Below, in pieces: positions 4,259 to 41,108 of a stretch of DNA of 45,555 nucleotides. How positions within the stretch are numbered: the stretch's first letter is position 1; every line of letters begins with the position of its first letter. This stretch comes from a virus. Both the position numbers and the translations under genes were made by a program. The notes beneath the pieces are model-generated. The model was not told the DNA's origin and ran no database searches. It saw nothing but the letters and a program-made list of their open reading frames with translations. Where the stretch lies: UHGV virus genome UHGV-2198558. One strand, written 5' to 3'.

Positions 4259-5131
4259 TTACTCCTCATCGTCCTCGTGCATGACTTCATATCGCTTGAT
4301 ATCTCTCTTGCTTGCAATGGAAGCGGGTTCAAGGATACCGAGAACGCGCCCGATCAGAGTGACATTGTCATATTCTGTGAATGTCATGGTATCATACTTA
4401 TCATTAAACGATACCAGACCTTCTTCCTCATATATCTTTATGTATGTACTGTTTCCAACCATGAAAGCGCCGACCTCATCGTATTGCAGCTCCGGACAGC
4501 CGGGATACTTCTCCACAAGAACAAGGTCGCCGTCATGATACTCAGGCTCCATACTGTCGCCGTTGACAGGAAACACAAGGTCTGCCTGCCGTATTGCTGT
4601 GTTCGTATTCGGATACAGATAGATCGGTGTTCCGTTGTCCTCAAACTCCGCCCCGCCGTCAAAGCCTGCTGCAAGCCCCTTGTCGCAGAGTGTCAGTTTG
4701 ATGATCTCCGGGAAGCTGCCGACAGTCTCTGCCGCTTCAAGCGAGGATAGCAGACTGTCCATTGCAAGCTGGTGCGGATACGACAGTCCACGGTATCTCT
4801 CTACCATAGACTTTTCCTTATCAGTATAGGTATCTTGCTTGTTTTCGATGCCATATAGTTCATACAGCGTGATACCAAGTGCGTCACATAGCTTAGGAAC
4901 AACGCTGAAATCCGGGCGGGTTCTTCCGTTCTCCCAGTTACTGATAGCATTTGAGGTCACGCCGATTTTTTCTGCAATCACTTTCTGATCTAATTTTAGA
5001 CGCTCCCTGTAGTATTTGATGCGACCGCCAACCGCGTGAGCGTCCTTACGGTGGGCAGGATCAGAGATGTTACTCTTAATATCCTTGCCTCCCTGTGAGA
5101 CTGAGATATTCGGTTTCTTACGCTGTTTCAT
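4259..5131 (-). CDS. Prophage repressor, CI/LexA-like (XRE-type HTH plus S24 self-cleaving peptidase domain)
   Basis: HTH segment IKYYRERLKLDQKVIAEKIGVTSNAISNWENG; S24 motifs VNGDSMEPEY and GDLVLV. Start set to ATG 5131 (AAGGAG 9 nt upstream); the ORF-track start at 5149 is a TTG. Confidence 0.85.
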   Translation of the reverse strand: MKQRKKPNISVSQGGKDIKSNISDPAHRKDAHAVGGRIKYYRERLKLDQKVIAEKIGVTSNAISNWENGRTRPDFSVVPKLCDALGITLYELYGIENKQDTYTDKEKSMVERYRGLSYPHQLAMDSLLSSLEAAETVGSFPEIIKLTLCDKGLAAGFDGGAEFEDNGTPIYLYPNTNTAIRQADLVFPVNGDSMEPEYHDGDLVLVEKYPGCPELQYDEVGAFMVGNSTYIKIYEEEGLVSFNDKYDTMTFTEYDNVTLIGRVLGILEPASIASKRDIKRYEVMHEDDEE

Positions 5132-5291
5132 TACAAAGCTCTCCTTCAAGAATGTATGGGATAGTCAATCCTCAAAACGAACAAATATTCTTATTGAAAT
5201 CTGTGCAACCCTACAAAGTTTATCAAAGACTTTTCAACGCTGAAAACGTTAGAAATGCGAAATTTGGCGTAGGCATTGCATCTTTGATCAC

Positions 5292-5320
5292 ATTATAGCA
5301 CACAATCGGTGTTTTGTCAA
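5292..5320 (-). promoter_or_regulatory. Repressor-operon promoter (consensus sigma-70)
   Basis: Minus strand reads TTGACA, 17-nt spacer, TGcTATAAT: a perfect consensus. Confidence 0.6.
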
Positions 5321-5333
5321 TACAAAATTGCAC

Positions 5334-5362
5334 TTGCAATTCGTTTGACGGTGTGATATAAT
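5334..5362 (+). promoter_or_regulatory. Divergent rightward promoter
   Basis: TTGCAA, 17-nt spacer, TGaTATAAT; back-to-back with the repressor promoter. ATTGCA-type repeats (5274-5339) are candidate operator half-sites. Confidence 0.5.
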
Positions 5363-5563
5363 AGCAATGTCGGTATTCCGCCTACAGGAAAATGAGACCG
5401 AAGGCTGGTGCAGTGTGTCCGTCTTAAGGTGTGTGACAGGACAGACTGCCGGTCAGAGTACCGACAACTTCGCCATCAACCCACTTCGCCACGATAGATA
5501 TACAGAACAATAGAATGGAGCTAATGTTGGAAATACCATAAGTTGCGAAACAGGAGGGCGTAA

Positions 5564-7794: not shown

Positions 7795-7915
7795 GCCGGA
7801 TGCATACGGCAGAGGATGTTCATATGATATCTGAACAGAATGCCATAGGTATACCCTGTGGTCGGAAGCCGATGTCATATGTCTACTCTGTGCTATGCAT
7901 CCGGCTATTTTTTTT
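7795..7915 (+). ncRNA. Candidate structured RNA element or complex terminator
   Basis: Perfect 12-bp inverted repeat gccggatgcata (7795-7806) / tatgcatccggc (7894-7905), extended by cagag/ctctg, enclosing about 70 nt and followed by T9 (7907-7915). No ORF with an RBS in the surrounding 600-bp intergenic region. Confidence 0.25.
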
Positions 7916-8140
7916 GCCGCGGCATTCGGAGCATGGCAATTAGATCATTACATTTGTTAGTCAGGGCGCGCACTGGCGGACAGATGCTCATAGCGGAAAT
8001 AACATCACGATTTGGAGTCTGTATAGACTGACAAGGTGTATTTCGTGTGGACATCGTCCCCTGCGTGCCTTTTTCTCTGGGACAGCAGTCGCGTTATGGG
8101 CATCTGCCGCTTGGTGTGTTCCTTGCAGAAAGGAACGATT

Positions 8141-8863
8141 ATGGAAAACGCAAATGTTCAGAATGCTGCCGCTATCACCGATAAGACCACCCTCGGCGAA
8201 CTGCTTGCAATGCTTGACCTCGCTGATAAGGCAGGCAAGATGCCGACACCGAGAGAACTGTTTGAGACTGCCGGTTCGCCGATAGCCGATATGAATGGCT
8301 GCACTCTCTTCAGCAACGGCTTCGCCATCTATCAGAATGTCACTGGGCGCACTGTTGTCTGGCTGCCGTACTGCAAGAGCTTCACCTATTACTTCGGCAA
8401 GCTCCGTGATTCCGAGAAAGACACGCTGACAGAGACCTATGAGCTGCCGGATGGATTTCTGGAAACACAGCCGTGGGTGATCGCAGTAACACTGATCGGC
8501 GACCATCGTGTGGAGGCAAACAGCATGAACCGCACCGGCAGCCGCAAGGATACCACAGATTATGACAGCGCCGATAACGGCGATAAAGACGGTGATGCAG
8601 AGGAGGCTTTGGCAGATCCGTATCGCAGGGCATTCAACTGGTATGACGGACGCATGGGCGAGAATCCGCAGGATGCCGTGGAGCGCAGAGAGACACGCGA
8701 GGAGATGCTTGCAGACATGACGGACAAGCAGCGTGAAGCCTTTATTATGTACTTCAGGGATGGTATGACGCAGGAAGAGATTGCTTCATATATAGGGGTA
8801 AGCCGTGATTCCATAAATGACAGGCTTGAAGGTGCTTTGAAAAAAGCAAAAAAATATTTTTAG
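8141..8863 (+). CDS. Sigma-70 region-4-like HTH protein (putative phage transcription regulator)
   Basis: C-terminus LTDKQREAFIMYFRDGMTQEEIASYIGVSRDSINDRLEGALKKAKK resembles sigma region 4; no region 2 recognised. Start at ATG 8141 after GAAAGGAA. Confidence 0.65.
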   Translation: MENANVQNAAAITDKTTLGELLAMLDLADKAGKMPTPRELFETAGSPIADMNGCTLFSNGFAIYQNVTGRTVVWLPYCKSFTYYFGKLRDSEKDTLTETYELPDGFLETQPWVIAVTLIGDHRVEANSMNRTGSRKDTTDYDSADNGDKDGDAEEALADPYRRAFNWYDGRMGENPQDAVERRETREEMLADMTDKQREAFIMYFRDGMTQEEIASYIGVSRDSINDRLEGALKKAKKYF

Positions 8864-8906
8864 GATACCCACAAAAAGACCTCTCCCACGACAGTATATG
8901 AGAGGG
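8863..8906. repeat. Copy 1 of a 44-bp intergenic repeat (second copy at 22690-22733)
   Basis: ggatacccacaaaaagacctctcccacgacagtatatgagaggg; 41 of 44 positions identical to copy 2; contains a cctctc/gagagg hairpin. Confidence 0.6.
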
Positions 8907-8994
8907 CTTGAAAAGAAACCAAACCGCAAGCGGCTGCAAAGCCCTCGCAGCCGAACCATTATTACATCGGTCGAAAGACCTGAACAGAAAGGAA

Positions 8995-9363
8995 ATGCTT
9001 ATGCCTATGGAAAACAGAGTCCCGAAAAACCGCTACAACGGCGGTGCCGCAACCGATGCCGACAAGCAGGACAAGCCCGATGTGCTGAAGATGATCGAAA
9101 CGGCAATGGACAAGCGTGCGGCGGGCATCGCACAGACGGTCACGGATATGTTCCGTTTCATGTCGATGGCATCTGCCATGCTCCCGAATATGGAGATGGA
9201 TGTCGGTGTGTTCCGTCTGAAGATCGACGATGACGGCATCTTTTTCGAGATCAACCATCCGTTCCGCAAGCGCAAGCAGCGTGATATCTCCAATGACTGC
9301 TGTGCCGAGGAGCCGGACAACTATGATGATGACGAGGAGGGACTGATTTATGACGGAGACTGA
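8995..9363 (+). CDS. Hypothetical protein with acidic C-terminus
   Basis: GAAAGGAA RBS then ATG 8995; C-terminus EEPDNYDDDEEGLIYDGD. Confidence 0.55.
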   Translation: MLMPMENRVPKNRYNGGAATDADKQDKPDVLKMIETAMDKRAAGIAQTVTDMFRFMSMASAMLPNMEMDVGVFRLKIDDDGIFFEINHPFRKRKQRDISNDCCAEEPDNYDDDEEGLIYDGD

Positions 9364-9844
9364 AAAGAAATTCCCTGTGCCGGGACCGCTTCCCGTAGAC
9401 GCAAAGAAGCTGATCGATGGGCTTGGCACGATCTTCGGCGGCGTGATCCAGCTTCTGGCAGCAATGGAGCCGAACATGGCAAAGGAGCTGGCGGACATGG
9501 CGATCAACGGTGTGCCAAAGGAGACTGCGCCGGAGGAAATCAATCCGGACGATTTCGAGGAGATCATCACCGCTGACGATCTGCCGTGGGATACAGAGCC
9601 GGAGCAGCCCGAAGAGCCGAAACCTGCGGAAAAGCCCAAACCGAAGAAGGCGGCAAAGAGGGCGGAGCCTGCATCGGAGCTGACCGCTGATGACCTCATC
9701 CGCGTGGTGACGCAGAAGATCAAGCAGAACCGTGCCAACAAGGACAAAGTGCTGGCGCTGCTGAAATCCTACGGTGCGGCAAAAGTCAGCGATATACCTG
9801 CGGACAAGTACGAAGCGTTTCTCACTGACCTGTCGCAGCTCTGA
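9350..9844 (+). CDS. Hypothetical protein
   Basis: GAGGAGGGA RBS; 164 aa with a Pro/Glu/Lys-rich linker; overlaps the previous stop by 14 nt. Confidence 0.55.
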   Translation: MTETEKKFPVPGPLPVDAKKLIDGLGTIFGGVIQLLAAMEPNMAKELADMAINGVPKETAPEEINPDDFEEIITADDLPWDTEPEQPEEPKPAEKPKPKKAAKRAEPASELTADDLIRVVTQKIKQNRANKDKVLALLKSYGAAKVSDIPADKYEAFLTDLSQL

Positions 9845-9858
9845 TCGGAGGTGGCACG

Positions 9859-11106
9859 ATGCCGGATGTTCATGCACTTCTGAGTGCATCCAGTTCCAAG
9901 CAATGGCTTCACTGTCCGCCGTCCGTCCGCCTGCAGGAGAACTTTCCGAACGAGAGCTCCGTGTATGCCGCCGAGGGAACATTCGCTCATGAGGTCTGCG
10001 AGTACAAGGTCCGCAAGTATCTGAAGGAGCGTGTGAAACGTCCGCAGTCCGAGGAATATGACACCGAGGAAATCGAGCAGATCACAGATGTGTATGCGGA
10101 GTTCGTGATCTCCATCATTGAGCAGATGAAGGAGAACGGCTGTGAGTCGCTTGCTTTTGTTGAGGAGCGTGTGGACTACAGCCACATTGCCCCTTCCGGC
10201 TTTGGCACGGCAGATATGCTCATCATCGGTAAGGACGAGCAGGGACGCGGAATCCTTCATGTATGCGATTTCAAGACGGGTGCAGGCGTGTTTGTGGATG
10301 CAGACCACAACAGCCAGATGATGCTCTATGCGATCGGAGCTTTAGCCGCCTACGGCTTTTTGTATGATATTGAGATCGTGCGTATGAGCATCATTCAGCC
10401 TCGTCTGGATAATATCAGCACATTCGAGTGCAGCAGAGCCGAGCTTGAGGAATGGGGCGAGAGCATCAAGCCCATTGCGAAACTTGCCTACGAGGGCAAG
10501 GGCGAACAAAGCCCCGGCGACTGGTGTCGGTTCTGCCGTGCAAAGCCTGTTTGCAAAGCGTGTGCCAATGAAGCACTGGCACTCTGCCGTGAGGATTTCC
10601 TTGACCTCGATGCCGGAGCATTCGATGATACTGCGGAGGAAAGCGATATGACCGCACCCTACGAAGCGGATATACAGACTGCCGTATTCAAGCAGCCGGG
10701 ACTGATTCCTATCAGCGAACTTGCGGAGATCCTGCCGACTCTGAACCGCATCAGCTCTTGGATCGAGGCGGTATTCGCATTCGTATCCTCCGAGGCGATC
10801 AATCACGGTGTACCGATTCCCGGCTATAAGGTGGTCGAAGGGCGCAGCAAGCGTGTATTCACAGATACAAAAGCTGTGGTCGATACCGCTGTTCAGAACG
10901 GGTACACCGACCTTTACAAGCAGACGCTCATCACGCTGACGGAATTTGAAAAGATGATGGGCAAGAAAAAGTTCAACGAGCTGCTCGGTGAGTATGTCGC
11001 CAAGCCACCCGGAAAGCTGGCACTTGTGCCGGAGAGCGATCCGAGAGAACCCGTTGATCTCACAACACCCGGTCAGGAATTTGAAGTTCTCTCTGATGAT
11101 GAGTGA
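9859..11106 (+). CDS. PD-(D/E)xK nuclease, DUF2800-like (Cas4/RecB-like cysteine cluster)
   Basis: N-terminus LSASSSKQWLHCP, core DMLIIG...HVCDFKTG, cysteine cluster CRFCRAKPVCKAC; GGAGGTG RBS. Family name from recall. Confidence 0.78.
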   Translation: MPDVHALLSASSSKQWLHCPPSVRLQENFPNESSVYAAEGTFAHEVCEYKVRKYLKERVKRPQSEEYDTEEIEQITDVYAEFVISIIEQMKENGCESLAFVEERVDYSHIAPSGFGTADMLIIGKDEQGRGILHVCDFKTGAGVFVDADHNSQMMLYAIGALAAYGFLYDIEIVRMSIIQPRLDNISTFECSRAELEEWGESIKPIAKLAYEGKGEQSPGDWCRFCRAKPVCKACANEALALCREDFLDLDAGAFDDTAEESDMTAPYEADIQTAVFKQPGLIPISELAEILPTLNRISSWIEAVFAFVSSEAINHGVPIPGYKVVEGRSKRVFTDTKAVVDTAVQNGYTDLYKQTLITLTEFEKMMGKKKFNELLGEYVAKPPGKLALVPESDPREPVDLTTPGQEFEVLSDDE

Positions 11107-11179
11107 GGATCATACAATAATGCCGCAATTATTCTGTTTGGTGAATACGCAAAATTGAATGAAATATAGGAGGTATACT

Positions 11180-11755
11180 ATGGCAAACACAACACCCGCG
11201 ACTAAAGTGGTTATTCCCTGTCGCATTTCTTTTGCGAACATCTGGGAGCCAAAATCAATTAATGGCAGCGAAGAGAAGTATTCCGTTTCCCTACTGATCC
11301 CGAAGGATGACAAGGCAACGCTCGCCAAGATCAAGAAGGCAATTGAGGCGGCAAAGGAAGCGGCGAAGGAGAAGAAGTGGGGCGGCAAGATCCCGCCGAA
11401 CCTCAAGCTGCCGATGCATGACGGCGACATCGACCGTCCTGATGACGAGAACTATGCCGGTCACTTCTTCTTCAATGCCACGAGCAAGGATGCACCGCAG
11501 ATCGTTGACCGCCATGTGCAGCCGATTCTCGATCCGATGGAGTGCGGCAGCGGTGACTATTGCAATGTCAGCGTGAACTTCTACGGTTTTGCAGCATCCG
11601 GCAACAAGGGCATCGCAGCAGGACTCCAGAACATCCAGCTTGTCCGCCACGGTGAGCGTCTTGCGGGCAGACCGACCGCAGCATCCGACTTCGTTGAGGT
11701 CGAGGGCGATGACACGGATGATCTCGCAGACGATGATCTGGATTTCCTGAACTGA
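11180..11755 (+). CDS. DUF2815-like single-strand DNA-binding protein
   Basis: TAGGAGGT RBS then ATG 11180; acidic SSB-like tail DDLADDDLDFLN; sits between the DUF2800-like nuclease and the polymerase. Family name from recall. Confidence 0.72.
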   Translation: MANTTPATKVVIPCRISFANIWEPKSINGSEEKYSVSLLIPKDDKATLAKIKKAIEAAKEAAKEKKWGGKIPPNLKLPMHDGDIDRPDDENYAGHFFFNATSKDAPQIVDRHVQPILDPMECGSGDYCNVSVNFYGFAASGNKGIAAGLQNIQLVRHGERLAGRPTAASDFVEVEGDDTDDLADDDLDFLN

Positions 11756-11795
11756 CGCATAAGGGAGGCTTGCCTCCCTGTACATACACAAACAG

Positions 11796-14681
11796 GTGGT
11801 GATTTTATTGAGCAGACGTGTACTTTCCATCGACTTAGAGACCTATTCGGATGTAGACCTCCCGAACTGCGGTGTGTACCGCTATGTTGAGGGAGATTTC
11901 CATATCCTGCTGTTCGCATATGCATTTGACGATGAGGAGACAAAATGCGTGGATATGGCCTGCGGGGAGCAGCTCCCGGCAGAGGTCGTGGATGCGCTGC
12001 AGGATGACAGTATTATCAAATCGGCATGGAACGCACAGTTTGAGCGTACCTGCCTTTCAAAATATCTCGGTACGCAGATTTCTCCGGACTCGTGGCAATG
12101 CACGATGGTATGGGCGGCATCGCTTTCACTTCCGCTGAAGCTGGCAACGGCTGCACAGGCACTGAAAACTGCACAGCAGAAGGACGCTGTCGGTGAGCGT
12201 CTTATCCGTTATTTCTCTCTGCCCTGTAAGCCCACCAAAGCAAACGGCGGCAGAACAAGAAATCTGCCGGAACACGCCCCCGAAGACTGGAAGCTGTTCA
12301 AAAGCTACTGCATACAGGACGTGGAAACCGAGCGGGATATCCGCCGCAGGCTTGAAAAGTTCCCCCTGCTCCCGCAGGAATGGGACTACTACCACATGGA
12401 TCAGCGGATCAATGATCGCGGTATCCTGATCGACAAAGAGCTTGTGCAGCAGGCTATTATCTGCAATATGGCAATGTCCGAAGAAATGACAAAACGTGCA
12501 TACGCTCTGACAGGACTTGAAAATCCGAATTCCGTATCACAGCTCAAGGGATGGCTTGAGGAGCGTGGCATTGAGGTGGATTCCCTCGGCAAAAAGAATG
12601 TCGCTTCTCTTATCACAGACCTCGACAGGCACAGCGCAGACGGTGAGGCTCTGGATATGATGAAGCTGCGGTTGCAGATGGCAAAGTCCTCTGTGAAAAA
12701 GTATCAGGCGGCAGAGAGATACATCTGTCAGGACGGCAGGGCGCACGGACTGTTTCAGTTTTCCGGAGCTCAGCGAACACAGCGCTGGTGTCTTACCGGC
12801 GATCATGAAATACTGACAGATAAAGGCTGGCTCAGGCTTGATAATTGGCAGGGCGGTAAGATTGCTTGTTGGAATCCTAATCAGGAAATGGTCTCGTTCC
12901 AGAAAGCGAACGTATTGTGCTTTGAATATGACGGTCCTATCTACCGCTATGAGGACAAACGGATCGATCAGATCAGCACGCCGGATCACAAAATGCGTGT
13001 AAAGAAACGGTATAACGGCGAGTGGACGGATGACACTGTTGGCAATATGGAAAAGTATCGTCCTTCTATTCCGTTTACCGGACGCAGACAAACGATGCCC
13101 GGCTTGGAGCACGCAGAACTGAGGGTACTGGTGATGACGCAGGCTGACGGCAGCTATAAAGAAGATGGAATGCTCTGCTTCCATTTCAAGAAGAAAAGGA
13201 AAATAGAACGGTGCAAACATCTGCTCAGACAGGCGGGCATTTATTTCACAGTGAATGAATGCAGGACAGATGGAACAACGCAGATCAAGATTCCTTCCCG
13301 TGAGCAGCCGATGTATCTAAGAATGTTTCATAACAAGACATTTGGAATGTGGCTTCTCGATGAAAGCCCGGATGTTTTCTTTGATGAGCTTCGGTATTGG
13401 GACGGATCGCAAAGCGCCAAAAACAGTATCCAATATACCACAACGAACAAAGTGAATGCCGATATTGTTCAGGCTTTTGCTCATACAAGTGGTCGCTGTG
13501 CAAAAATGAAAACGGTCATCCGGGATAAAGAACACCCGAATTGGAGCGATGCATACTATCTCGATATATGGCTCACTCCGAAAAACTGTCATGAAATCAG
13601 AGTGAAGCCGACTATCTCGCAATTCAGCGGCAAAATATACTGTGCTGAAACCCCAACCGGATACTTCCTTGTAAGACGTAATGGTAAAGTGTGGGTAACA
13701 GGAAACAGCGGGCGCGGCATTCAATTACAGAACCTGCCGCAGAACCACATCTCTACCCTCGATGAAGCAAGAGAACTTGTCAAAATGGGCTGCTTTGACA
13801 TGATCGAAGCACTGTACGGCAATACGCCGGATATCCTGTCACAGCTTATCCGCACGATGCTCATTCCGAAGGACGGCTGTGAATTTATCGTGGCAGACTT
13901 CTCCGCCATTGAAGCGAGAGTACTTGCGTGGCTTGCCGGAGAACAGTGGCGGCTCGATGCCTTCAAGCGTGGCGAGGATATTTACTGTGCATCCGCATCG
14001 CAAATGTTCGGTGTTCCGGTCGTGAAGCACGGCATCAATGGAGAACTGCGGCAGAAAGGCAAGGTCGCTGAGCTTGCCTGTGGTTACGGAGGTGGCAGCG
14101 GTGCGCTGATCTCTATGGGTGCGCTGGATATGGGACTGAAAGAGGATGAACTTCCCGACATCATTTCAAGCTGGCGCGATGCAAACCCGGAGATCGTGAA
14201 ATTCTGGTATGCCGTGGAGAAAGCGGCGATCGAAACAGTCAAGGACCACGCGGAAAGAACGGTCGGCAGGATCGGTTTTCAGTTCTCTGCAAATACACTG
14301 TGGATCGTGCTGCCGTCCGGGCGCAGACTTGCCTACATCAAGCCGAGGTTACAGCCGAACCGTTTCGGGCGTATGGCGCTGACCTTTGAAGGACTCGGTG
14401 CAAACAACAAATGGACGCGCGGTGAGACATACAGCGGCAAGCTGACGGAGAACATCACACAGGCGACCGCCCGTGACCTGCTTGCAGAGGCAATGCACCG
14501 AATGGAGCTTGCGGGACTTGACATAGTCGGTCATGTGCATGATGAGGTCATTTTGGAAGTGCCGAAAAGACAATATACGGTCGATGATGTGTGCAATATC
14601 ATGAATCAAAATCCGAGATGGGCAGACGGTCTGCCCTTATCATCTGCCGGATATACCGGCAATTACTACTTCAAAGACTGA
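11796..14681 (+). CDS. Family-A DNA polymerase (3'-5' exonuclease plus polymerase) interrupted by an intein
   Basis: Exo motif SIDLETYSD; polymerase motif A FIVADFSAIEARVLAW, motif B RQKGKVAELACGYGGG, motif C HVHDEVILE. Start uncertain (GTG 11796 or TTG 11808). Confidence 0.85.
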   Translation: MVILLSRRVLSIDLETYSDVDLPNCGVYRYVEGDFHILLFAYAFDDEETKCVDMACGEQLPAEVVDALQDDSIIKSAWNAQFERTCLSKYLGTQISPDSWQCTMVWAASLSLPLKLATAAQALKTAQQKDAVGERLIRYFSLPCKPTKANGGRTRNLPEHAPEDWKLFKSYCIQDVETERDIRRRLEKFPLLPQEWDYYHMDQRINDRGILIDKELVQQAIICNMAMSEEMTKRAYALTGLENPNSVSQLKGWLEERGIEVDSLGKKNVASLITDLDRHSADGEALDMMKLRLQMAKSSVKKYQAAERYICQDGRAHGLFQFSGAQRTQRWCLTGDHEILTDKGWLRLDNWQGGKIACWNPNQEMVSFQKANVLCFEYDGPIYRYEDKRIDQISTPDHKMRVKKRYNGEWTDDTVGNMEKYRPSIPFTGRRQTMPGLEHAELRVLVMTQADGSYKEDGMLCFHFKKKRKIERCKHLLRQAGIYFTVNECRTDGTTQIKIPSREQPMYLRMFHNKTFGMWLLDESPDVFFDELRYWDGSQSAKNSIQYTTTNKVNADIVQAFAHTSGRCAKMKTVIRDKEHPNWSDAYYLDIWLTPKNCHEIRVKPTISQFSGKIYCAETPTGYFLVRRNGKVWVTGNSGRGIQLQNLPQNHISTLDEARELVKMGCFDMIEALYGNTPDILSQLIRTMLIPKDGCEFIVADFSAIEARVLAWLAGEQWRLDAFKRGEDIYCASASQMFGVPVVKHGINGELRQKGKVAELACGYGGGSGALISMGALDMGLKEDELPDIISSWRDANPEIVKFWYAVEKAAIETVKDHAERTVGRIGFQFSANTLWIVLPSGRRLAYIKPRLQPNRFGRMALTFEGLGANNKWTRGETYSGKLTENITQATARDLLAEAMHRMELAGLDIVGHVHDEVILEVPKRQYTVDDVCNIMNQNPRWADGLPLSSAGYTGNYYFKD
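12789..13706 (+). mobile_element. Intein (306 aa) within the DNA polymerase, with candidate LAGLIDADG homing-endonuclease motifs
   Basis: Starts CLTGDHEILTDKGW (block A, Cys1) and ends VWVTGN followed by Ser; internal LRVLVMTQADGSY and LRYWDGSQ motifs. Inserted in ...GAQRTQRW / SGRGIQLQNLP. Confidence 0.7.
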
Positions 14682-14694
14682 GGAGGATATTCTT

Positions 14695-15744
14695 ATGAAA
14701 CAGGGACGAGCATTACCGGAAGTGCTGACAGAGCTTCAGAGACAGAATGCAGCAAAGCAGGATTATATTGGCACGGCAGAGGCGTTCCGTCTGGACGAGG
14801 ACGGCAGCACCTTCCGGATCGGTGACGATCACAGCTTTGGTACCACACAGCTTTTCCATCGTCAGGTGGCATCGGCACTCGGCATTCCGGCGAAGTATTA
14901 CGACATGATGCAGAAACAGAAGCCTGACCTTCTGGCAGACAATGTGAATGCATGGTTCAGTGACAAGGGCAGCAGCTACATGGTGCGTACCCTTGATTAC
15001 GGCAGCGGACAGGTTGCGAGAGCCTTTCTGTCTGACCGTTACCGCCGTATCGATAACCTTGAAATTGCCTCGGCTGTTCTCCCGATTTTCGCCGGACAGG
15101 AAGGCATGGAGGTCATGAGCTGCGAGGTCACAGAGAATAAGCTGTATCTGAAGATCGTCAATCACCGTCTGGAAATGGCGTGTGTCGGTGACCGTGTGCA
15201 GGCAGGTGTCATCATCTCCAATTCGGAGGTTGGACTCGGTGCTGTGTCTGTTCAGCCGCTTGTCTATACACTTGCCTGCACCAACGGCATGGTGGTCAAC
15301 AGTATGGGCGAACGCCGTACCCATGTCGGCAGGGCGGCGAAAGCACTGGAAGACAGCTTCAATATCTACACAAATGAAACCCTCGAAGCCGAAGATAAGG
15401 CATTCATGCTGAAGCTCCGTGATACCACAATGGCAGCAATTGAAGAGGCTCGTTTCGCACAGATCATCGGTGTGTTGGAGCAGAGCCACGGCGCAAAGAT
15501 CACAGGACGTGTGCAGGATGTCATCGAACTGACCGGCAAGGCGTATGACCTGAATCAGTCGGAACAGGACAGCATTCTGAACTATCTCATCAAGGGCGGC
15601 GATCTTTCCCTCTATGGTCTGAGCAATGCCATCACACGCGCTTCGCAGGATGTAGATTCCTACGACAGAGCCACTGCGTTAGAGGGCATCGGCTGGCAGG
15701 TGGCGACCATGCCTGCAAATCAGTGGAAGGAGATCAACGCATGA
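14695..15744 (+). CDS. DUF932-like phage/plasmid protein
   Basis: GAGGAGGA RBS; 349 aa; segments AFLSDRYRRIDNLE and VIISNSEVGLGAVS match my recollection of DUF932/TIGR03299 proteins. Confidence 0.6.
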   Translation: MKQGRALPEVLTELQRQNAAKQDYIGTAEAFRLDEDGSTFRIGDDHSFGTTQLFHRQVASALGIPAKYYDMMQKQKPDLLADNVNAWFSDKGSSYMVRTLDYGSGQVARAFLSDRYRRIDNLEIASAVLPIFAGQEGMEVMSCEVTENKLYLKIVNHRLEMACVGDRVQAGVIISNSEVGLGAVSVQPLVYTLACTNGMVVNSMGERRTHVGRAAKALEDSFNIYTNETLEAEDKAFMLKLRDTTMAAIEEARFAQIIGVLEQSHGAKITGRVQDVIELTGKAYDLNQSEQDSILNYLIKGGDLSLYGLSNAITRASQDVDSYDRATALEGIGWQVATMPANQWKEINA

Positions 15745-15974
15745 GCAGAACCTGGAAAGACAGAAAAGGATATAAAACACGCAGAAAACGACACGGATAT
15801 CCTGTGCCGGAGATCTGCAATTACACACGCGGCAGCTATGAAGATTATGACCACAGCGATGAGGAACTGTATGTCGATGACCAGTGCTGCGAGAACTGCC
15901 GCTTTTGCGGATGTTGCCGTCATACACCGTTCCCGTCGGGCTGGTGCGAATACTGGAAGGACGGCACACATTGA
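15741..15974 (+). CDS. Small cysteine-rich protein
   Basis: ATG overlaps the previous stop (ATGA); cysteine cluster CCENCRFCGCC. Confidence 0.45.
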   Translation: MSRTWKDRKGYKTRRKRHGYPVPEICNYTRGSYEDYDHSDEELYVDDQCCENCRFCGCCRHTPFPSGWCEYWKDGTH

Positions 15975-16411
15975 GAGAATATGTTGTCGAAAACGAGTTT
16001 GTCAAGGCGGTAAAAGCGGCAGGCGGTGTGGCATACAAGCTGACATCGCAGACCGCAAACGGACTGCCGGACAGACTCGTTCTGTTCCCGGCGGCAAAGA
16101 CGATTTTCGTGGAGCTGAAAGCACCGGGGAAAATGATGCGACCGTTGCAGCGTAAAAGACGGTATCAGCTTATGAAACTCGGCTTTCCGGTGCTGTGCAT
16201 TGACAGGATGCCGCAGATCAAGCCGTTCATATCAGCAGCATTGTCATGGACACCCGGTGAGCCGTTCCCGGAAGGCATCGGTGCGAAGATACCCGATCTG
16301 GAAAGGGCAACGCTGCCGACGGATATGGATAACTTCGGGGAAACGCTTGAACCCATCGATCCAGACAATCTGATAGAGTTTTATGAAATAGAGGACGGTG
16401 ATGATGCATGA
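15971..16411 (+). CDS. VRR-NUC domain nuclease
   Basis: GLPDRLVLFP...FVELKAPGK...LQRKRRYQ pattern. Start uncertain (TTG 15971 after GGAAGGA, or ATG 15911). Confidence 0.65.
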   Translation: MREYVVENEFVKAVKAAGGVAYKLTSQTANGLPDRLVLFPAAKTIFVELKAPGKMMRPLQRKRRYQLMKLGFPVLCIDRMPQIKPFISAALSWTPGEPFPEGIGAKIPDLERATLPTDMDNFGETLEPIDPDNLIEFYEIEDGDDA

Positions 16412-16905
16412 TTAACCCTAAACGCAGAGCTGTGAGAAAAAGCTGCTCATACTGCGGAACTGTCTTTACCTATGTCGGAAGTCATGGTACAAGAAATAAG
16501 CATTTTTTCTGTTCTCATGAATGCTATATTGCCTTTAAGACAAAGAAAGCAGAAGTGAAATGCGATTGGTGCGGCAAATCAATGCTGAAAAAACGCTCTG
16601 ATATATGGAGAACGGATCACAATTTCTGCTGCCCCGAATGCTGTTTACTGTATAGGCAAAAGCAAGGCGAAACTTCATGGAATCATCGTGTGAATGGAAT
16701 AACCGTACACAGGGGCATTTTGGAGAAGAAGCTCGGACGAGAACTGCGTGCGGATGAAGAAGTACACCTTATCGATGGTAACCATTTCAATAATGATCCG
16801 GACAATCTCATCGCCCTTTCCAAATCGGAACACGCCAAAATTCATTCTTCTTGGAAAGCGAGGGACGAGTATGGAAAATACGTTAAAACGCAGTCAGATT
16901 CATGA
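16408..16905 (+). CDS. HNH homing endonuclease with N-terminal zinc-finger-like CxxC pairs
   Basis: HLIDGNHFNNDPDNLIALSKSEHAKIH HNH motif; ATGA overlap with the VRR-NUC stop. Confidence 0.8.
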   Translation: MINPKRRAVRKSCSYCGTVFTYVGSHGTRNKHFFCSHECYIAFKTKKAEVKCDWCGKSMLKKRSDIWRTDHNFCCPECCLLYRQKQGETSWNHRVNGITVHRGILEKKLGRELRADEEVHLIDGNHFNNDPDNLIALSKSEHAKIHSSWKARDEYGKYVKTQSDS

Positions 16906-18253
16906 ATACCAAAAATACTGTGTTGACTTTATTAAGTCTCATCCCGTATCAGCACTCTTTTTGGATTGCGGACTTGGAAAGACGATCATTTCATTGACTG
17001 CAATATATGATCTAATGTTTGATGAGCTGAAGGTATCTAAAGTTCTTGTAATTGCCCCTCTAAGAGTGACAAATGTCTGGAAAGCGGAGGTTCAGAAATG
17101 GAGTCATCTGCAAGATGTTGATGTTGCGATAGTAGTCGGAACTGTAAAACAGCGGATTGCTGCGATTAACAGTAACGCTCTTGTTTACGCTGTCAACCGT
17201 GAAAATGTGAAGTGGCTCGTAGAGTATTACGAGAAGAACGGTCTTCGCTGGGATTACGATATGATCGTCATTGACGAGCTGAGTTCCTTCAAAAACTACC
17301 AGTCACAGCGGTTCAAATGGTTGCGTAAGGTTCGGCCTTTCGTGAAGCGCTGGGTAGGATTGACAGGAACGCCGACTTCCAACGGTCTCATGGACCTGTG
17401 GGCAGAGATCGGTATCCTTGACGGCGGTGAGCGGCTCGGACGGTTTATAGGCAGATTTCGTGAAAGCTATTTCAAGCCTGCGTCCATGAATCCGTCAACC
17501 GGTGTTGTTTTCAGCTACACCCCACGTCCCGTCGCAGAGGAGCAGATCTATAACAAAATCTCCGACATTACGATTTCCATGAAGGCACTGGATTATCTGG
17601 ATATGCCGGAATGTATCTTCGTCAATCATGAGGTCGAGATGAATGCAGCAGAGCGAAAACTATACGATCAGCTGAAACAGGATCTTATCATTCCGCTTGA
17701 GGACGGAGATATCGATGCTGCCAACGCTGCCTCTCTCTCCAACAAGCTGCTCCAGATGGCTAACGGCGCGGTCTATGACGAAAACAAGGAAGCCCGAATC
17801 ATTCACAGCCGGAAACTGGAAATGCTGGAAGACCTGATCGAAGCCGCAAACGGACAGCCTGTTCTGGTCGGCTACTGGTTCAAGCATGACCGCACTCGCA
17901 TCATGGAGCATCTAACCGCCTGCGGTTACAGCCCTCGTGATATAAAGGATTCCGCCGACATCACAGACTGGAACGCCGGAAACATCCCGGTCGCTCTTAT
18001 ACACCCCGCTTCGGCAGGACACGGTCTGAACATTCAGTCCGGTGGCCATATCATGATCTGGTTCGGTCTGACATGGAGCTTAGAGCTTTATCAGCAGACA
18101 AATGCGCGTTTGTGGAGGCAGGGACAGAAGCACACTGTCACGATCCACCACATCGTAACAAAAGACAGTGTCGATGAGGATGTGCTTGCTGCTTTGGCCA
18201 ATAAGGATGTAACACAGGAGAAATTGATCGCCGCTGTCAAGGCGAGATTATAG
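16871..18253 (+). CDS. SNF2-family helicase
   Basis: Walker A LDCGLGKT, motif II DELS, helicase C-terminal motifs. Start at ATG 16871 (MENTLKRSQIHEYQ); overlaps the HNH gene by 35 nt. Confidence 0.85.
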   Translation: MENTLKRSQIHEYQKYCVDFIKSHPVSALFLDCGLGKTIISLTAIYDLMFDELKVSKVLVIAPLRVTNVWKAEVQKWSHLQDVDVAIVVGTVKQRIAAINSNALVYAVNRENVKWLVEYYEKNGLRWDYDMIVIDELSSFKNYQSQRFKWLRKVRPFVKRWVGLTGTPTSNGLMDLWAEIGILDGGERLGRFIGRFRESYFKPASMNPSTGVVFSYTPRPVAEEQIYNKISDITISMKALDYLDMPECIFVNHEVEMNAAERKLYDQLKQDLIIPLEDGDIDAANAASLSNKLLQMANGAVYDENKEARIIHSRKLEMLEDLIEAANGQPVLVGYWFKHDRTRIMEHLTACGYSPRDIKDSADITDWNAGNIPVALIHPASAGHGLNIQSGGHIMIWFGLTWSLELYQQTNARLWRQGQKHTVTIHHIVTKDSVDEDVLAALANKDVTQEKLIAAVKARL

Positions 18254-18338
18254 GATCATACTCTCCGTATGATCCGCACTGAAAAGACGACAAAGCGGCG
18301 ACAAAACGGTTACACCGCACTCTATGGAGGTGAAAACT

Positions 18339-18842
18339 ATGGCGCGTAAGAACAAACGCCTGAAAACAGAATACCACAGAGGTCTCGGTTTTGATCCGCG
18401 AAAGTATATGACTTCCTACTCCCACCAAACTCGCTGTGAATCAATTCCGACTCCCGACCGTGCTCCAAAGCGCGGCGATATCTGGTTTGCGCGGCTCGGC
18501 ACACATCCGAATTCCAGTGTGCAGGGCGGCACCCGTCCCGTTATCATCATTTCTAACGACCTCGGCAACGAACACGCTGACACCGTCAATGTTGTGCCGA
18601 TGACCAGACACCTGAAAAAGCCGGAGCTGCCTTGTCACACTCCGCTTTCTCCCGGCAGCATTACCGATAGCAGACAGCCGCTTGAACTGTCAATGGTGCT
18701 GGCGGAGCAGCTCACAACTGTCAGCAAGAACGCACTTCGCTATTATGCAGGTCATATTTCCGATGACGAAGCTATGAACCGCATCGAAACCGCTGTTATT
18801 GCGCAGCTCAGTCTTGAAAGGAGATATTCCAAATGCCTGTGA
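18339..18842 (+). CDS. MazF/PemK-like protein with a 48-aa basic N-terminal extension
   Basis: GDIWFARLGTHPNSSVQGGTRPVIIISND and NVVPMT parallel E. coli MazF GDLIWVDFDPTKGSEQAGHRPAVVLS and CVPCTT. GGAGGT RBS 7 nt before ATG 18339. Confidence 0.6.
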   Translation: MARKNKRLKTEYHRGLGFDPRKYMTSYSHQTRCESIPTPDRAPKRGDIWFARLGTHPNSSVQGGTRPVIIISNDLGNEHADTVNVVPMTRHLKKPELPCHTPLSPGSITDSRQPLELSMVLAEQLTTVSKNALRYYAGHISDDEAMNRIETAVIAQLSLERRYSKCL

Positions 18843-21262
18843 ATTTTGTCAATATCCCAGATGTTCTGAAGCAGACCGCTTCTTTCTGTGTCTGGAAGCT
18901 GGAAAAGAGATCCGGCAGACCGACCAAAGTACCGTATAACCCTCGCACCGGTGCAATGGCGAGAACCAACGATCCGTCTACCTTTGCAGACTTCAATACA
19001 GCAATGAAATCCTATGCCATCGGCGGATGGGACGGTATCGGCTATCGTGTCAGCGAAGGCATCGGTGCAATCGACATCGACCACTGCATCCGTGAGGACG
19101 GCAGTCTCAATGATGTTGCAGCATCCATTCTCGGTATCTTCCCCGATGCGTACTTTGAGCGCAGCCCCTCTGGTACCGGCTTGCGCGGCTTTTTTCGCCT
19201 TTCTCCTGATTTCGCCTACGATAAGACTGTGTACTACATCAACAACCGAAAGCACGGTCTGGAGGTCTATCTTCCCGGTGTGACGAACCGCTTTGTGACT
19301 GTTACAGGAGATATGTTCCGCAATGGTGCAGTTACCCGAAATGACGGTTCCCTGCGCACACTACTTGATACCTTCATGAAGCGCAGCACCCGTGTATCTT
19401 CCAAGACTGTCGAGCCTGTGTCCTATCTCGATGATGACGGTGTTATCGCTCACGCATCGGCATCTGAATCCGGCGACAAGTTCAAAGCACTGTATGCCGG
19501 TAACTGGGAGGAAGGCTACGATTCCCAGTCCGATGCAGATATGGCGCTTGTGTCTATCCTTGCATTCTGGTGCGGTAATGTCGAGGAGCAGATCGACCGT
19601 ATCTTCCGAACTTCCGGTCTGATGCGTGATAAGTGGGATCGTATGACCGGAGACAGAACTTACGGACAGATCACGATCCGCAATGCTGTCGCTACCAATT
19701 CCGCTGTCTATACACCGATTCAGGATTCTACGGCAGAAGATGACTTTGACGATATCGAGGGCGATGCGGAAAATGAGCAGCTTATGTTTGAGCCTGATCT
19801 CACCCATGTTTCCCTGACGCTGGAAGAAATGCAGCCGCACACGAATCCCCGCTATCAGCGTGACGAGATCGGCATCGGATATGCATTTGCGGATTATTAT
19901 AAGCCCATCGCTCGTTTTGACCGTGAGCGCGGCATCTGGTATGTCTTTGACGGGAAGGTGTGGCAGCCGGACGAGAATGCGCTTGCCGTGGCGGAGCTTG
20001 CAAAGCGTCTGGCAGACAGGCTGTATACCTTTGCCCTTCAGATCAAGGATGAGGACACACGCAACCGCTATATCAAGCGAGTGCAGAAGCTGCAAATGCG
20101 GAAGAACCGCCGCACCATGATCGAAGATGCGAAATCCGTGTATCCAGTGCCGCACGCTATCTTTGACCGCAATACCTACCTTTTCAACTGTCAGAACGGG
20201 ACACTGAACCTCACCACAGGTGAATTCCGTCCGCACGATCCGGCAGACTTTCTCACCATGATGTCCGGTGTCACTTATGATCCGAACGCCACCTGTCCAC
20301 GATGGGAGCAGTTCATTTCCGAAGTTATGTGTAATGATGCTGACCTCGCATTATACTTGCAAAAAGCCCTCGGATATGCGCTTACCGGCGACACATCACT
20401 GGAATGCCTGTTCATCCTCTACGGTGCAACATCCAGAAACGGCAAAGGCACCACAATGGAGACCTTTCTCAAAATCATGGGCGACTACGGCAAAACCTCC
20501 AATCCGGAGATGCTGTCTACGAAATTCGGCAACACCAATGCTTCCGGACCGTCCGAAGAGATCGCCCGGCTTGCGGGTGTCCGTTTTGTCAATATCTCCG
20601 AGCCGGAGAAGAAGATCACCTTCAATGCGGCACTGGTAAAGCGTATGACGGGTAATGATACACTGAATGCACGTTTCCTGCATGAGAATTCCTTCGACTT
20701 CCGACCGAATTTCAAGATCTTCATCAATACGAATTACAAACCGTCCGTTTCTGATATGACACTGTTTTACTCCAACCGTCTGAAGCTCATTCCGTTCAAA
20801 CGCCATTTTGAGGAGCATGAGCAGGACAAAGGTCTGAAAGCATTTTTCAGTACGTATGTCTGCCTCTCTGCCATCTTCAACTGGTGCTATGAAGGATATA
20901 AGCGGTTCCGTTCCGAAGATCTGGAAGATCCGGCTGCTGTATCTCAAGCAACCAAGGAGTATCAGGAGGAGTCTGACCGTATCGGGCAGTTTGTGGATGC
21001 GTGGCTCGAAGAAGGCGAAGCATTTGAAGTCCGTACCTCTGCGGCATATAAGCTGTACGGTGAATGGTGCGATAAATATGGCTACCGCAAGGAAAACAGC
21101 ACCAACTTCAATAACGCGATCCAGCGTTTCTTCCCCATCGTGCGTAAGCGCCCGAACGATACTAAGGGTGCGCAGAAAACAACGATGCTTGTGGGCTGTC
21201 GTTTTCTGGAGCATGAAAACGGCGAAGCTGACGAACCAGAGGAGTTTGCAGCTTTGGAGTAA
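18833..21262 (+). CDS. Primase-helicase (Prim-Pol N-domain plus P4-type primase NTPase)
   Basis: Prim-Pol motifs GAIDIDHC and SPSGTGLRGFF; Walker A ILYGATSRNGKGTT; 809 aa; GAAAGGAG RBS. Confidence 0.85.
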   Translation: MPVNFVNIPDVLKQTASFCVWKLEKRSGRPTKVPYNPRTGAMARTNDPSTFADFNTAMKSYAIGGWDGIGYRVSEGIGAIDIDHCIREDGSLNDVAASILGIFPDAYFERSPSGTGLRGFFRLSPDFAYDKTVYYINNRKHGLEVYLPGVTNRFVTVTGDMFRNGAVTRNDGSLRTLLDTFMKRSTRVSSKTVEPVSYLDDDGVIAHASASESGDKFKALYAGNWEEGYDSQSDADMALVSILAFWCGNVEEQIDRIFRTSGLMRDKWDRMTGDRTYGQITIRNAVATNSAVYTPIQDSTAEDDFDDIEGDAENEQLMFEPDLTHVSLTLEEMQPHTNPRYQRDEIGIGYAFADYYKPIARFDRERGIWYVFDGKVWQPDENALAVAELAKRLADRLYTFALQIKDEDTRNRYIKRVQKLQMRKNRRTMIEDAKSVYPVPHAIFDRNTYLFNCQNGTLNLTTGEFRPHDPADFLTMMSGVTYDPNATCPRWEQFISEVMCNDADLALYLQKALGYALTGDTSLECLFILYGATSRNGKGTTMETFLKIMGDYGKTSNPEMLSTKFGNTNASGPSEEIARLAGVRFVNISEPEKKITFNAALVKRMTGNDTLNARFLHENSFDFRPNFKIFINTNYKPSVSDMTLFYSNRLKLIPFKRHFEEHEQDKGLKAFFSTYVCLSAIFNWCYEGYKRFRSEDLEDPAAVSQATKEYQEESDRIGQFVDAWLEEGEAFEVRTSAAYKLYGEWCDKYGYRKENSTNFNNAIQRFFPIVRKRPNDTKGAQKTTMLVGCRFLEHENGEADEPEEFAALE

Positions 21263-21301
21263 AAGTAGACTTTTCTCCGTATTTACGCTGTTTTCCGCAG
21301 T

Positions 21302-21500
21302 TGGGGCAGCGTGGGGCAAGTTTTTTCGGTGGTTATTATTATTACTTCTCTTTATATATATTACTATTTTTACTTGCCCCTACTTGCCCCAAATAAATAA
21401 AAACAATAGAAAAGATAAGAAGAATAGAGGATTTTCACTGATTTGAACCATTACCCATTTTGCACTGTTTTGAACCTTGCCCGATGCTGTCACTGACAAA
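21302..21500. promoter_or_regulatory. Putative replication origin / regulatory region downstream of the primase gene
   Basis: Tandem tacttgcccc x2 (21371-21390) with inverted partner ggggcaag (21313-21320), AT-rich core 21331-21420, and repeated tttgaacc motifs. Confidence 0.35.
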
Positions 21501-21568
21501 GAGTGTGTAAGCGACAAAGCGTGGCAAGGTCAAAATCCAATAAACAATCATACAGGAGGAACACGAAT

Positions 21569-22663
21569 ATGAGAATCATTACTTCAGAACAGGTATCCGC
21601 AGGACATCCCGACAAGATCTGTGACCAAATCGCGGATGCCATCGTGACAGACTGCCTTCAGCATGACCGCAGCAGTCGTGTTGCGATAGAGTGTCTTTTC
21701 AAGAACCGCTGTCTTGTGATCGCCGGTGAGCTGACCAGTACCCATGAGCCGGACTACAAGGCTCTGGTGCAGCAGGTGTTCGACCGTATCAACAACGGCG
21801 GAGCTGAGAACAGCGATGCGGGACTTGACTACAAGCTGGACTTCACCGCCGATGATCTGGACATTGCGATTCTGGTCGATCACCAGAGCAATGACATTGC
21901 GCTCGGTGTGAATGTCGGCGGTGCAGGAGATCAGGGTATGATGTACGGCTATGCGACCAACGAAACGCCGGAGATGCTCCCGATCCCCTTCGTGCTGGCT
22001 ACCAGATTTCTGGAACTGCTGAAAGCCTACCCCTGCCGTATGCTGAAAGCCGATGCAAAGGCACAGGTCAGCTATGACTATGACAGCGGTCGCATTACCA
22101 CCTTCCTCTGCTCGGTGCAGCATACACACGATGTGGATGTTGAGGACTTCAAGCCCATCATCGAAAAGCTGATGGTGAGAACGGCAACCGAATACGGGCT
22201 GAATACAGACTTTGCAAAGCTCGTCAACCCGACCGGCAGATTTGTCATAGGCAGTTCCTTTGCGGACTGCGGCGTTACCGGACGCAAGCTCGCCTGCGAT
22301 ACCTATGGCGGTATCGGGCATATCGGCGGCGGTGCAATGTCCGGCAAAGATCCGTCTAAGGTTGACCGCAGCGGCGCATATGCAGCAAGAAAAATCGCAA
22401 GGGATATCGTCAGCGCCGGATATTCAGACAAGGCAGAGGTGCAGATCGCATACGCCATCGGTGTGGCAGAGCCCGTATCCGTGTATGTAGAGACTTTTGG
22501 CACGGAGCATCAGGATACGGAGTTCATCAACCAGTATGTTCGTGAGAATTATGACCTCACGCCGAGGGGAATCATCGAAGGGCTGCATCTGCTCGATGTG
22601 GACTATAACGCCATTTCCGCATACGGACACTTCGGAAAACAGAACCTTCCGTGGGAACTATAA
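21569..22663 (+). CDS. metK: S-adenosylmethionine synthetase
   Basis: Collinear with bacterial MetK: SAGHPDKICDQIAD, GAGDQGMMYGYA, DTYGG, GGGAMSGKDPSKVDRSGAYAARKIA; GGAGGA RBS before ATG 21569. Confidence 0.88.
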   Translation: MRIITSEQVSAGHPDKICDQIADAIVTDCLQHDRSSRVAIECLFKNRCLVIAGELTSTHEPDYKALVQQVFDRINNGGAENSDAGLDYKLDFTADDLDIAILVDHQSNDIALGVNVGGAGDQGMMYGYATNETPEMLPIPFVLATRFLELLKAYPCRMLKADAKAQVSYDYDSGRITTFLCSVQHTHDVDVEDFKPIIEKLMVRTATEYGLNTDFAKLVNPTGRFVIGSSFADCGVTGRKLACDTYGGIGHIGGGAMSGKDPSKVDRSGAYAARKIARDIVSAGYSDKAEVQIAYAIGVAEPVSVYVETFGTEHQDTEFINQYVRENYDLTPRGIIEGLHLLDVDYNAISAYGHFGKQNLPWEL

Positions 22664-22689
22664 TAAATTTTTTGAAATTTTTTTTGATT

Positions 22690-22733
22690 GGATACCCACA
22701 AAATGCCCTCTCCCACGACAGTATATGAGGGGC
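22690..22733. repeat. Copy 2 of the 44-bp intergenic repeat
   Basis: ggatacccacaaaatgccctctcccacgacagtatatgaggggc; hairpin preserved through an A-U to G-U change. Confidence 0.6.
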
Positions 22734-22826
22734 GTTGTTCAGACCGACCACAAACACACTACAAACCAAGCGGGACTGACCGCCCCTATCACTATGCAAC
22801 ACCACTGTGGAAAGGAGGCAGAGACA

Positions 22827-23186
22827 ATGCCAAGCAGACCAAAAACACCATGCAGACACCCCGGCTGTGCTGCGCTCGTACCTTATGGCACCAAGTATTG
22901 TGACAAGCACCGTTCTCTCCATCCGGAGGACACACGCTCCGCAGGCAGTCGAGGCTATGGCACCACATGGAACAAGACCCGCAAGCGTTACCTTGAGACG
23001 CATCCGCTGTGCGTGGAGTGCATGAAGCAAGGGCGCTATATCAAGGCGACCGATGTCGATCACATCATGCCGCACCGAGGAGACAATGTTCTCTTCTGGG
23101 ATCAGAGCAACTGGCAGAGCCTCTGCCACCGACACCACAGCATCAAGACCCGAAATGAGGATCACACCCCCGAGTACAAGTACTAA
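22827..23186 (+). CDS. HNH endonuclease (small phage type)
   Basis: AAAGGAGG RBS; CRHPGC...CDKH...PLCVEC...DVDHIMP...N.QSLC..HH pattern; 119 aa. Confidence 0.8.
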   Translation: MPSRPKTPCRHPGCAALVPYGTKYCDKHRSLHPEDTRSAGSRGYGTTWNKTRKRYLETHPLCVECMKQGRYIKATDVDHIMPHRGDNVLFWDQSNWQSLCHRHHSIKTRNEDHTPEYKY

Positions 23187-41077: not shown

Positions 41078-41108
41078 TGCAGATTTTTTGAGAAAAGGAG
41101 TGATGCGG

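Follow-up and report, generated by a model that had tools for sequence, protein, structure and literature searches.

Phage sigma-like factors with promoters of their own are already well known. SPO1 gp28 or gp34 are phage sigma factors with their own promoter class, and at the middle promoters of T4, where MotA/AsiA carry out sigma appropriation, the -35 region has a box that is read by a phage protein, and a -10-like element is kept. CGAC serves as the -10-like motif of some Bacillus ECF promoters. At the level of the transcript, 5'-terminal stem-loops stabilise bacterial mRNAs, for example the Escherichia coli ompA and the Bacillus subtilis aprE and ermC leaders. Promoter recognition can also extend across two polypeptides, as in SigO-RsoA, the two-subunit sigma factor of B. 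subtilis, and Xpf of the B. subtilis PBSX prophage is listed with both sigma regions 2 and 4 (PMC10141391). The locus described here stands out for the absence of region 2 and for a protein helix and a DNA box that are exchanged as a pair.

The window, by which we mean the whole 45,555-nt stretch of viral DNA that was analysed (UHGV-2198558), represents a temperate phage with related prophages in Ruminococcus flavefaciens and other Oscillospiraceae. Its features that concern us are as follows.

4259-5149, minus strand: gene for a CI-like repressor
near 5330-5365: canonical early promoter, TTGCAA-17-TGATATAAT
8141-8863, plus strand: sigma-like gene (240 aa), with a C-terminal sigma-70 region 4 helix-turn-helix and a predicted N-terminal alpha/beta domain of unknown type
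8995-22663: replication block (DUF2800 nuclease, single-strand-binding protein, family A polymerase, SNF2 helicase, D5 primase and metK)
21503-22663: metK, with all three S-AdoMet synthetase domains
22812-22818, plus strand: ribosome-binding site of the HNH gene, AAGGAGG
22827-23186, plus strand: HNH gene (PF01844, E 1.7e-4), start ATG at 22827
22827 to about 33051, plus strand: HNH-headed same-strand block (HNH, NrdD, NrdG and three DNA methylases)
33-40 kb: small genes with canonical-looking promoters
41088-44248: terminase genes

Several other elements of the window deserve mention in their own right. A PemK/MazF-like toxin gene (18324-18842) lies within the replication operon, between the SNF2 helicase and D5 primase genes, and the large terminase gene (41582-44248) encodes a LAGLIDADG domain (residues 303-369) N-terminal to the ATPase and nuclease domains, which points to an intein or to fusion with a homing endonuclease. 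The gap of roughly 650 nt 5' of the sigma-like gene contains a 20-nt inverted repeat (7795-7814/7886-7905), followed by TATTTTTTTT; the resulting long terminator-like hairpin (7795-7916) has no Rfam match and could be a regulated leader for the sigma-like gene. Between 33200 and 40700, several families of repeat units precede small genes, each with CTTGCTAT or CTTGATAT, then GGTAATAT (a canonical-looking promoter) and a short hairpin, GGGCAAACGCCC, and the same interval holds repeated terminator-like units. The promoter-bearing units are a second promoter class, likewise with a 5' hairpin.

The element that is the subject of this analysis is a 48-nt repeat. Bases 22690-22737 are identical to 8863-8910 at 43 of 48 positions, and a 40-nt pattern with two free positions has exactly two matches in the window and none in 100 dinucleotide-preserving shuffles, which bears out the claim of an earlier, sequence-only reading that a second repeat copy stands between metK and the HNH gene. 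A profile built from relatives likewise returned the two copies in the window (E about 1e-18), and a third was not found. The first base of copy 1 is the last base of the stop codon of the sigma-like gene; both copies are intergenic, co-oriented with long gene blocks and situated 132-137 nt 5' of the first start codon. This promoter-type placement (intergenic, operon-upstream, co-oriented) is seen in relatives as well as in the window. We conclude that the repeat is probably (about 0.6) the core of a phage-specific promoter, present in two copies, dependent on a phage factor and followed in each case by a structured leader. On our best reading, copy 1 stands at the head of the replication operon (8995-22663) and copy 2 at that of the operon for HNH, NrdDG and the methylases (22827 to about 33051).

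From 5' to 3', the repeat consists of an A/T tract, a variable box of 13-15 nt, a constant core, CTCCCACGACAGTATAT, and a G-rich start, distributed over the two copies in this way:

8842-8862, plus strand: copy 1 A/T tract, UP-element-like, overlapping the final codons of the sigma-like gene (KKAKKYF-stop)
8863-8877, plus strand: copy 1 variable box, GGATACCCACAAAAA, candidate site for the recognition helix of the sigma-like protein; one box class per cassette
8878-8899, plus strand: copy 1 constant core, GACCTCTCCCACGACAGTATAT, conserved in the information profile
8900-8994, plus strand: copy 1 leader, with a putative start at G8900; start codon at 8995
22664-22689, plus strand: copy 2 A/T tract, directly 3' of the metK stop codon
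22690-22704, plus strand: copy 2 variable box, GGATACCCACAAAAT; first 14 of 15 bases as in the copy 1 box
22705-22726, plus strand: copy 2 constant core, GCCCTCTCCCACGACAGTATAT
22727-22734, plus strand: candidate transcript start (G22727) and 5' arm of helix P1, AGGGGCG (22728-22734)
22737-22780, plus strand: inner helices P2 (about 22737-22742/22776-22780) and P3 (22744-22746/22771-22773), from RNAfold and the RNAalifold consensus of 24 relatives, with a variable loop between
22781-22787, plus strand: 3' arm of helix P1, CGCCCCT

For this anatomy, the G after TATAT was numbered +1. An A-run followed by a T-run is conserved at -60 to -43 over 86 distinct instances, and the tail of the sigma-like gene in relatives still encodes the copy 1 A/T tract. 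The interval from -41 to -21 is poorly conserved; GATACC is the commonest sequence between -36 and -31, an A-run occupies -28 to -24, and a constant block extends from -20 to +5. A hairpin is possible inside the repeat (CCTCTC...GAGAGG), and it was rejected because relatives do not keep it. Since the repeat is conserved as sequence and has a swappable box, like a site read by a protein, it appears to act as DNA and not as folded RNA.

Conservation of the repeat was followed through relatives of the phage, a member of the family being present in R. flavefaciens 007c (NZ_ATAX01000017.1). The 18-mer CCCACGACAGTATATGAG was found at 31 viral loci and more than 118 metagenome loci, almost all of them at the same two genomic positions. 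Loci found via proteins instead of via the motif are free of motif bias, and in all 13 of the genome assemblies found in this manner with an intact end of the sigma-like gene, the element lies directly 3' of that gene, with no more than 1-2 changes in the core. On the HNH side, many relatives carry the element upstream of the HNH gene and many others lack it, metK abutting HNH, so copy 2 is dispensable. Relatives also contain other core types, for example CCCCCCTGAAACGGTATATAGTAGAGGC; types A-F have in common only TATAT, the preceding C-rich block and the following G-rich bases. GenBank phage records contained no DNA relative, and in the literature searched the motif occurs in no paper and R. 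flavefaciens prophages are linked with a sigma factor in none.

Two arrangements among the relatives depart from the usual one. On the minus strand of L136 (metagenome contig ODAI011118044.1), at about 5190-5360, three tandem elements 55 nt apart carry three different variable boxes, flanked on one side by a DUF6577 protein whose end weakly resembles region 4 and on the other by an ORF that is primase-polymerase-like by eye (no Pfam hit); the contig also encodes a protein with sigma region 2 only, and it may be another mobile element answering several phage specificities. In L044 and L018 (viral contig 3300049640_001049), foreign DNA lies inside the element, between ...CCCGCTCC and CCCACGAC, and separates the box from the core.

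The sigma-like protein has a region 4 helix-turn-helix, and region 4 alone is matched by Pfam and NCBIfam, where NCBIfam weakly matches 'positive control sigma-like factor'. When solved structures were searched by sequence, the matches were again to region 4 only, and the hhalign alignment with E. coli RpoE was confined to region 4. Sigma70_r2 is absent from the Pfam families reported for 40 diverse members of the protein family. The first AlphaFold run used a shallow alignment and was uninformative for the N-terminal domain; in a second model from a deeper alignment (mean pLDDT 75), residues 10-130 form an alpha/beta domain at the N-terminus, unlike sigma region 2, and an acidic linker predicted to be disordered joins it to region 4, which is modelled with confidence. 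In the window we found no region-2 partner protein, and the phage genomes deposited in GenBank contain no full sigma-like protein, their matches being of region-4 length only. Because region 2 is missing and an alpha/beta fold is predicted for the N-terminal domain, the protein may be an activator and not a sigma factor, a possibility weighed below.

Homologues of this protein are 75-90% identical over their length, except in the recognition helix of the helix-turn-helix (SRDSINDRLEGAL in the window), which comes as discrete cassettes on similar backbones. Each of the 20 cassette variants, in about 13 classes, goes with one box class, as in these pairs:

cassette SRDS[IV]NDRLEGAL: box TACCCACAAAA
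cassette AKMSVNERLRYAL: box ACCCCTTACAAA
cassette TKPAVYVRLNNAL: box GACTTTAACTTTT
cassette SRRTLREHLTCAL: box GACCCGCCATTT
cassette DQTTIRDHLRGAL: box GATACCCCTAAAAC

Because the end of the gene and copy 1 adjoin, the correlation between cassette and copy 1 box could reflect linkage. The second copy offers a better test of coupling, since it lies 14 kb from the sigma-like gene, and it carries the same box as copy 1 in 7 of 8 specificity classes; the remaining class is represented by two near-identical contigs whose HNH-side element is also of another core type. In this discordant pair (L058 and L083 versus L036 and L038; viral contigs 3300031555_010547 and 3300029305_011788), GATACTACCAAAAT accompanies a type A core on the sigma side and CCACCCCGCCATTTT a type C core on the HNH side. 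Four different boxes were found on nearly identical HNH leaders (L048, L051, L064, L070), and the box therefore behaves as an exchangeable module. Judged from these sequence comparisons, related phages swap the box together with the recognition helix that appears to read it.

A scan for sigma-70 promoters found no canonical promoter at copy 2 and, at copy 1, one 9-of-12 match (8837-8866) that stops within the first few bases of the box and has no counterpart at copy 2; the phage's other promoters are canonical, the early promoter listed above being an example. The spacings of sporulation-sigma and flagellar-sigma promoters, compared by eye, did not fit. In the phage-promoter model that we favour, the main sigma factor of the host would express the early genes, including the sigma-like gene (8141-8863), and the region-4 helix-turn-helix of its product would read the variable box, GGATACCCACAAAA, as the co-variation of helix and box suggests. 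RNA polymerase would then start at or next to the G after TATAT, at 8900 and 22727. With such a start, GATACC (-36 to -31) would fall at the -35 position, and the A/T tract (-60 to -43) where an UP element would lie. The G-rich first bases of each transcript would pair with a downstream C-rich arm to give a helix at the extreme 5' end, and the copy 2 stem would be that helix. By analogy with stabilising leaders, the 5' helix would most likely shield the mRNA from 5'-end-dependent decay, which is the weakest step of the model.

The copy 2 stem itself was examined by folding and by comparison. Its arms, AGGGGCG (22728-22734) and CGCCCCT (22781-22787), are complementary and lie where the sequence-only reading had placed them, and P1 was recovered by both RNAfold and RNAalifold, enclosing the two nested helices P2 and P3. 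That reading had also named a stability no better than that of shuffled controls as what would refute its claim, and copy 2 taken by itself does not significantly exceed them: the fold of 22690-22800 has a z of -1.39, with 20 of 200 shuffles as stable or better. A duplex of the arm with the downstream sequence gave a z of -1.56 (p 0.09) for copy 2, and in this test against shuffles only the GAGGGGAGTTG family was significant. In the 24 alignable leaders of the copy 2 type, RNAalifold predicted P1, P2 and P3, and 98.9% of the cells of the alignment pair, versus 29-54% with the partners slid; one pair is changed on both sides, and the covariation score was reached by 27 of 500 shuffles. Changes in the 3' arm of these relatives are C to T, which keeps a G-U pair, and L067 has lost one C. 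CGCCCCT is followed by ATCACTATG, with no U run, and a plus-strand scan found no intrinsic terminator here; Rfam gave no hit at the gathering score and only chance-level ones at E up to 1; and a leader peptide after GAGGGG was rejected by eye, there being no conserved reading frame in relatives.

A stem with differing arms does follow each copy, as had been noticed from the letters alone (GAGGGCTT/AAGCCCTC at copy 1, AGGGGCG/CGCCCCT at copy 2). The two stems cannot be taken as compensatory versions of one homologous helix, since the leaders are not alignable, nor do they have the same architecture. In the copy 1 leader, a helix (8902-8909/8939-8946) and a hairpin (8931-8937/8947-8953) cannot both form in full, as the 3' arm of the helix is the loop of the hairpin, with no spacer between, whereas the copy 2 stem has its two nested helices; because of the overlapping second hairpin of copy 1, the two leaders share the position of the helix and not its architecture. 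Both copy 1 leader helices show compensatory change in L123, and single-sequence folding of copy 1 gives a different minimum-energy fold.

Beyond the window, nearly all type-A leaders, otherwise unrelated, pair bases 1-8 after TATAT with a downstream C-rich arm across loops of 8 to 45 nt, and the 5' arm begins 1-3 nt after TATAT. The arms include the following pairs.

5' arm GAGGGGCG, 3' arm CGCCCCT
5' arm GAGGGGAGTTG, 3' arm CAACTCCCCTC
5' arm GAGGGCTT, 3' arm AAGCCCTC: copy 1
5' arm GAGGACTT, 3' arm AAGTCCTC: L123, compensatory
5' arm GAGAGGCG, 3' arm CGCTTCT: L070, compensatory
5' arm GGAAA, 3' arm TTTCC: L169, compensatory versus L043 GGGGA/TTCCTC

The pairing probability of bases 1-8 was 0.69 versus 0.58 in shuffles (49 leader clusters, not fully independent; Wilcoxon p 2e-6). 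Ranking by arm swaps over 34 arm types gave no overall signal (z -1.25), because the design excluded short-range hairpins and because any C-rich leader can pair with a G-rich arm. In L011 and L113, a gene that starts 11 nt downstream has the G-rich bases after TATAT as its ribosome-binding site, so these bases must be transcribed; this ribosome-binding site and the position of the helices in unrelated leaders together argue, though indirectly, that the RNA begins at or before the G after TATAT. A recurrent leader helix is thus plausible from the sequences compared, and not proven. Of the proposal that structure rather than sequence is conserved, the part that stands is that relatives keep a helix after TATAT, with few compensatory changes; the repeat itself is conserved as sequence.

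Where the RNA begins also separates the phage-promoter model from its main competitor. If the sigma-like protein were an activator, it would bind the box, which would stand in for a -35 element, and recruit the host polymerase with its main sigma factor, and TATAT(G/A) would be the -10 element. TATATG read as an ordinary -10 puts the start about 7 nt later, near 22733-22735, and therefore leaves most of the P1 5' arm untranscribed, so that P1 would be absent from the RNA and only P2 and P3 would form. In favour of such an activator, TATAT is the only core element common to core types A-F, sigma region 2 was not found and the N-terminal domain is not region-2-like; in core type C, moreover, 6-7 nt separate TATATA from the start of the hairpin, the distance that a normal -10 would give. 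We nevertheless regard it as unlikely, because unrelated leaders each have a contiguous complement to the bases right after TATAT, compensatory changes affect bases 4-6 (L070, L169), the ribosome-binding site of L011 and L113 would be lost from the transcript and TATATG is without the conserved final T of the -10 hexamer. Quite improbable, in our judgement, is a role of the element as RNA in transcripts that read through from the upstream gene, for example as a processing site or as a polymerase-modifying signal for antitermination, of the kind known from the put sites of phage HK022. The conserved core shows no covariation, the internal hairpin is lost in relatives, the variable box follows a DNA-binding helix, the tract upstream is of the A/T kind typical of promoters and no Rfam family matches; these points weigh against it. 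In its favour, the window scan found no terminator between the sigma-like gene or metK and the element, and there are two copies per genome with helices after each.

The remaining two explanations are very unlikely. A promoter for a T7-type phage single-subunit RNA polymerase, with TATA directly before a G-rich start, would agree with the helices, which suggest a start directly after TATAT, and with what we take to be a resemblance of the element to T7 and K11 promoters (ACGAC...TATA, then G-rich). There is, however, no RNA polymerase gene among the large ORFs of the 45.5-kb window, which is not a complete genome, and the remainder of such genomes is expected to consist of structural and lysis genes. 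A conserved repeat with A/T tracts might be a DNA site for replication, packaging or recombination, but both copies are co-oriented, stand at equal distance from a start codon at the heads of operons and are coupled to a helix-turn-helix of the transcription type.

The phage-dependent promoter thus remains our preferred reading, and it can be extended, tentatively, to a fuller picture. A Ruminococcus prophage factor with only the -35-reading domain of a sigma factor and a new N-terminal domain might direct starts directly after TATAT, and the exchange of helix and box as paired cassettes might create orthogonal promoter codes among co-resident phages, maybe exploited by other mobile elements that stack boxes. 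If this were true, the family would hold a dozen or more matched helix-box pairs in one nearly constant protein scaffold, which would help in working out DNA recognition by region 4 and in constructing orthogonal gene switches for gut and rumen Firmicutes. A further consequence would be that closely related temperate phages diversify their activation signals, beyond repressor immunity, and annotation would gain two operon starts for an uncultured, widespread prophage group (R. flavefaciens and other Oscillospiraceae).

Set beside the known systems, the locus resembles those of Xpf and of SPO1 gp28/gp34 in combining an early phage region-4 protein with a repeated non-canonical promoter before later operons; it differs from Xpf in that region 2 is undetectable in the window protein, whose N-terminal domain has a predicted alpha/beta fold. 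The window protein finds its best structural matches in the -35-binding domains of ECF sigma factors, and in both cases protein and promoter specificity change together, but here the variation is limited to one recognition helix, exchanged among close relatives. The window core also contains the CGAC of ECF promoters, with a spacing that fits only if transcription starts directly after TATAT. Compared with SigO-RsoA, the window offers no region-2 partner, and a region-2-only protein is encoded by the unrelated element L136. With T4 MotA/AsiA no homology was seen, and in the window protein it is the DNA-binding domain itself that resembles sigma region 4. As for the ompA, aprE and ermC leaders, the comparison lies in a helix within a few bases of the probable 5' end, whose position is kept and whose sequence is variable.
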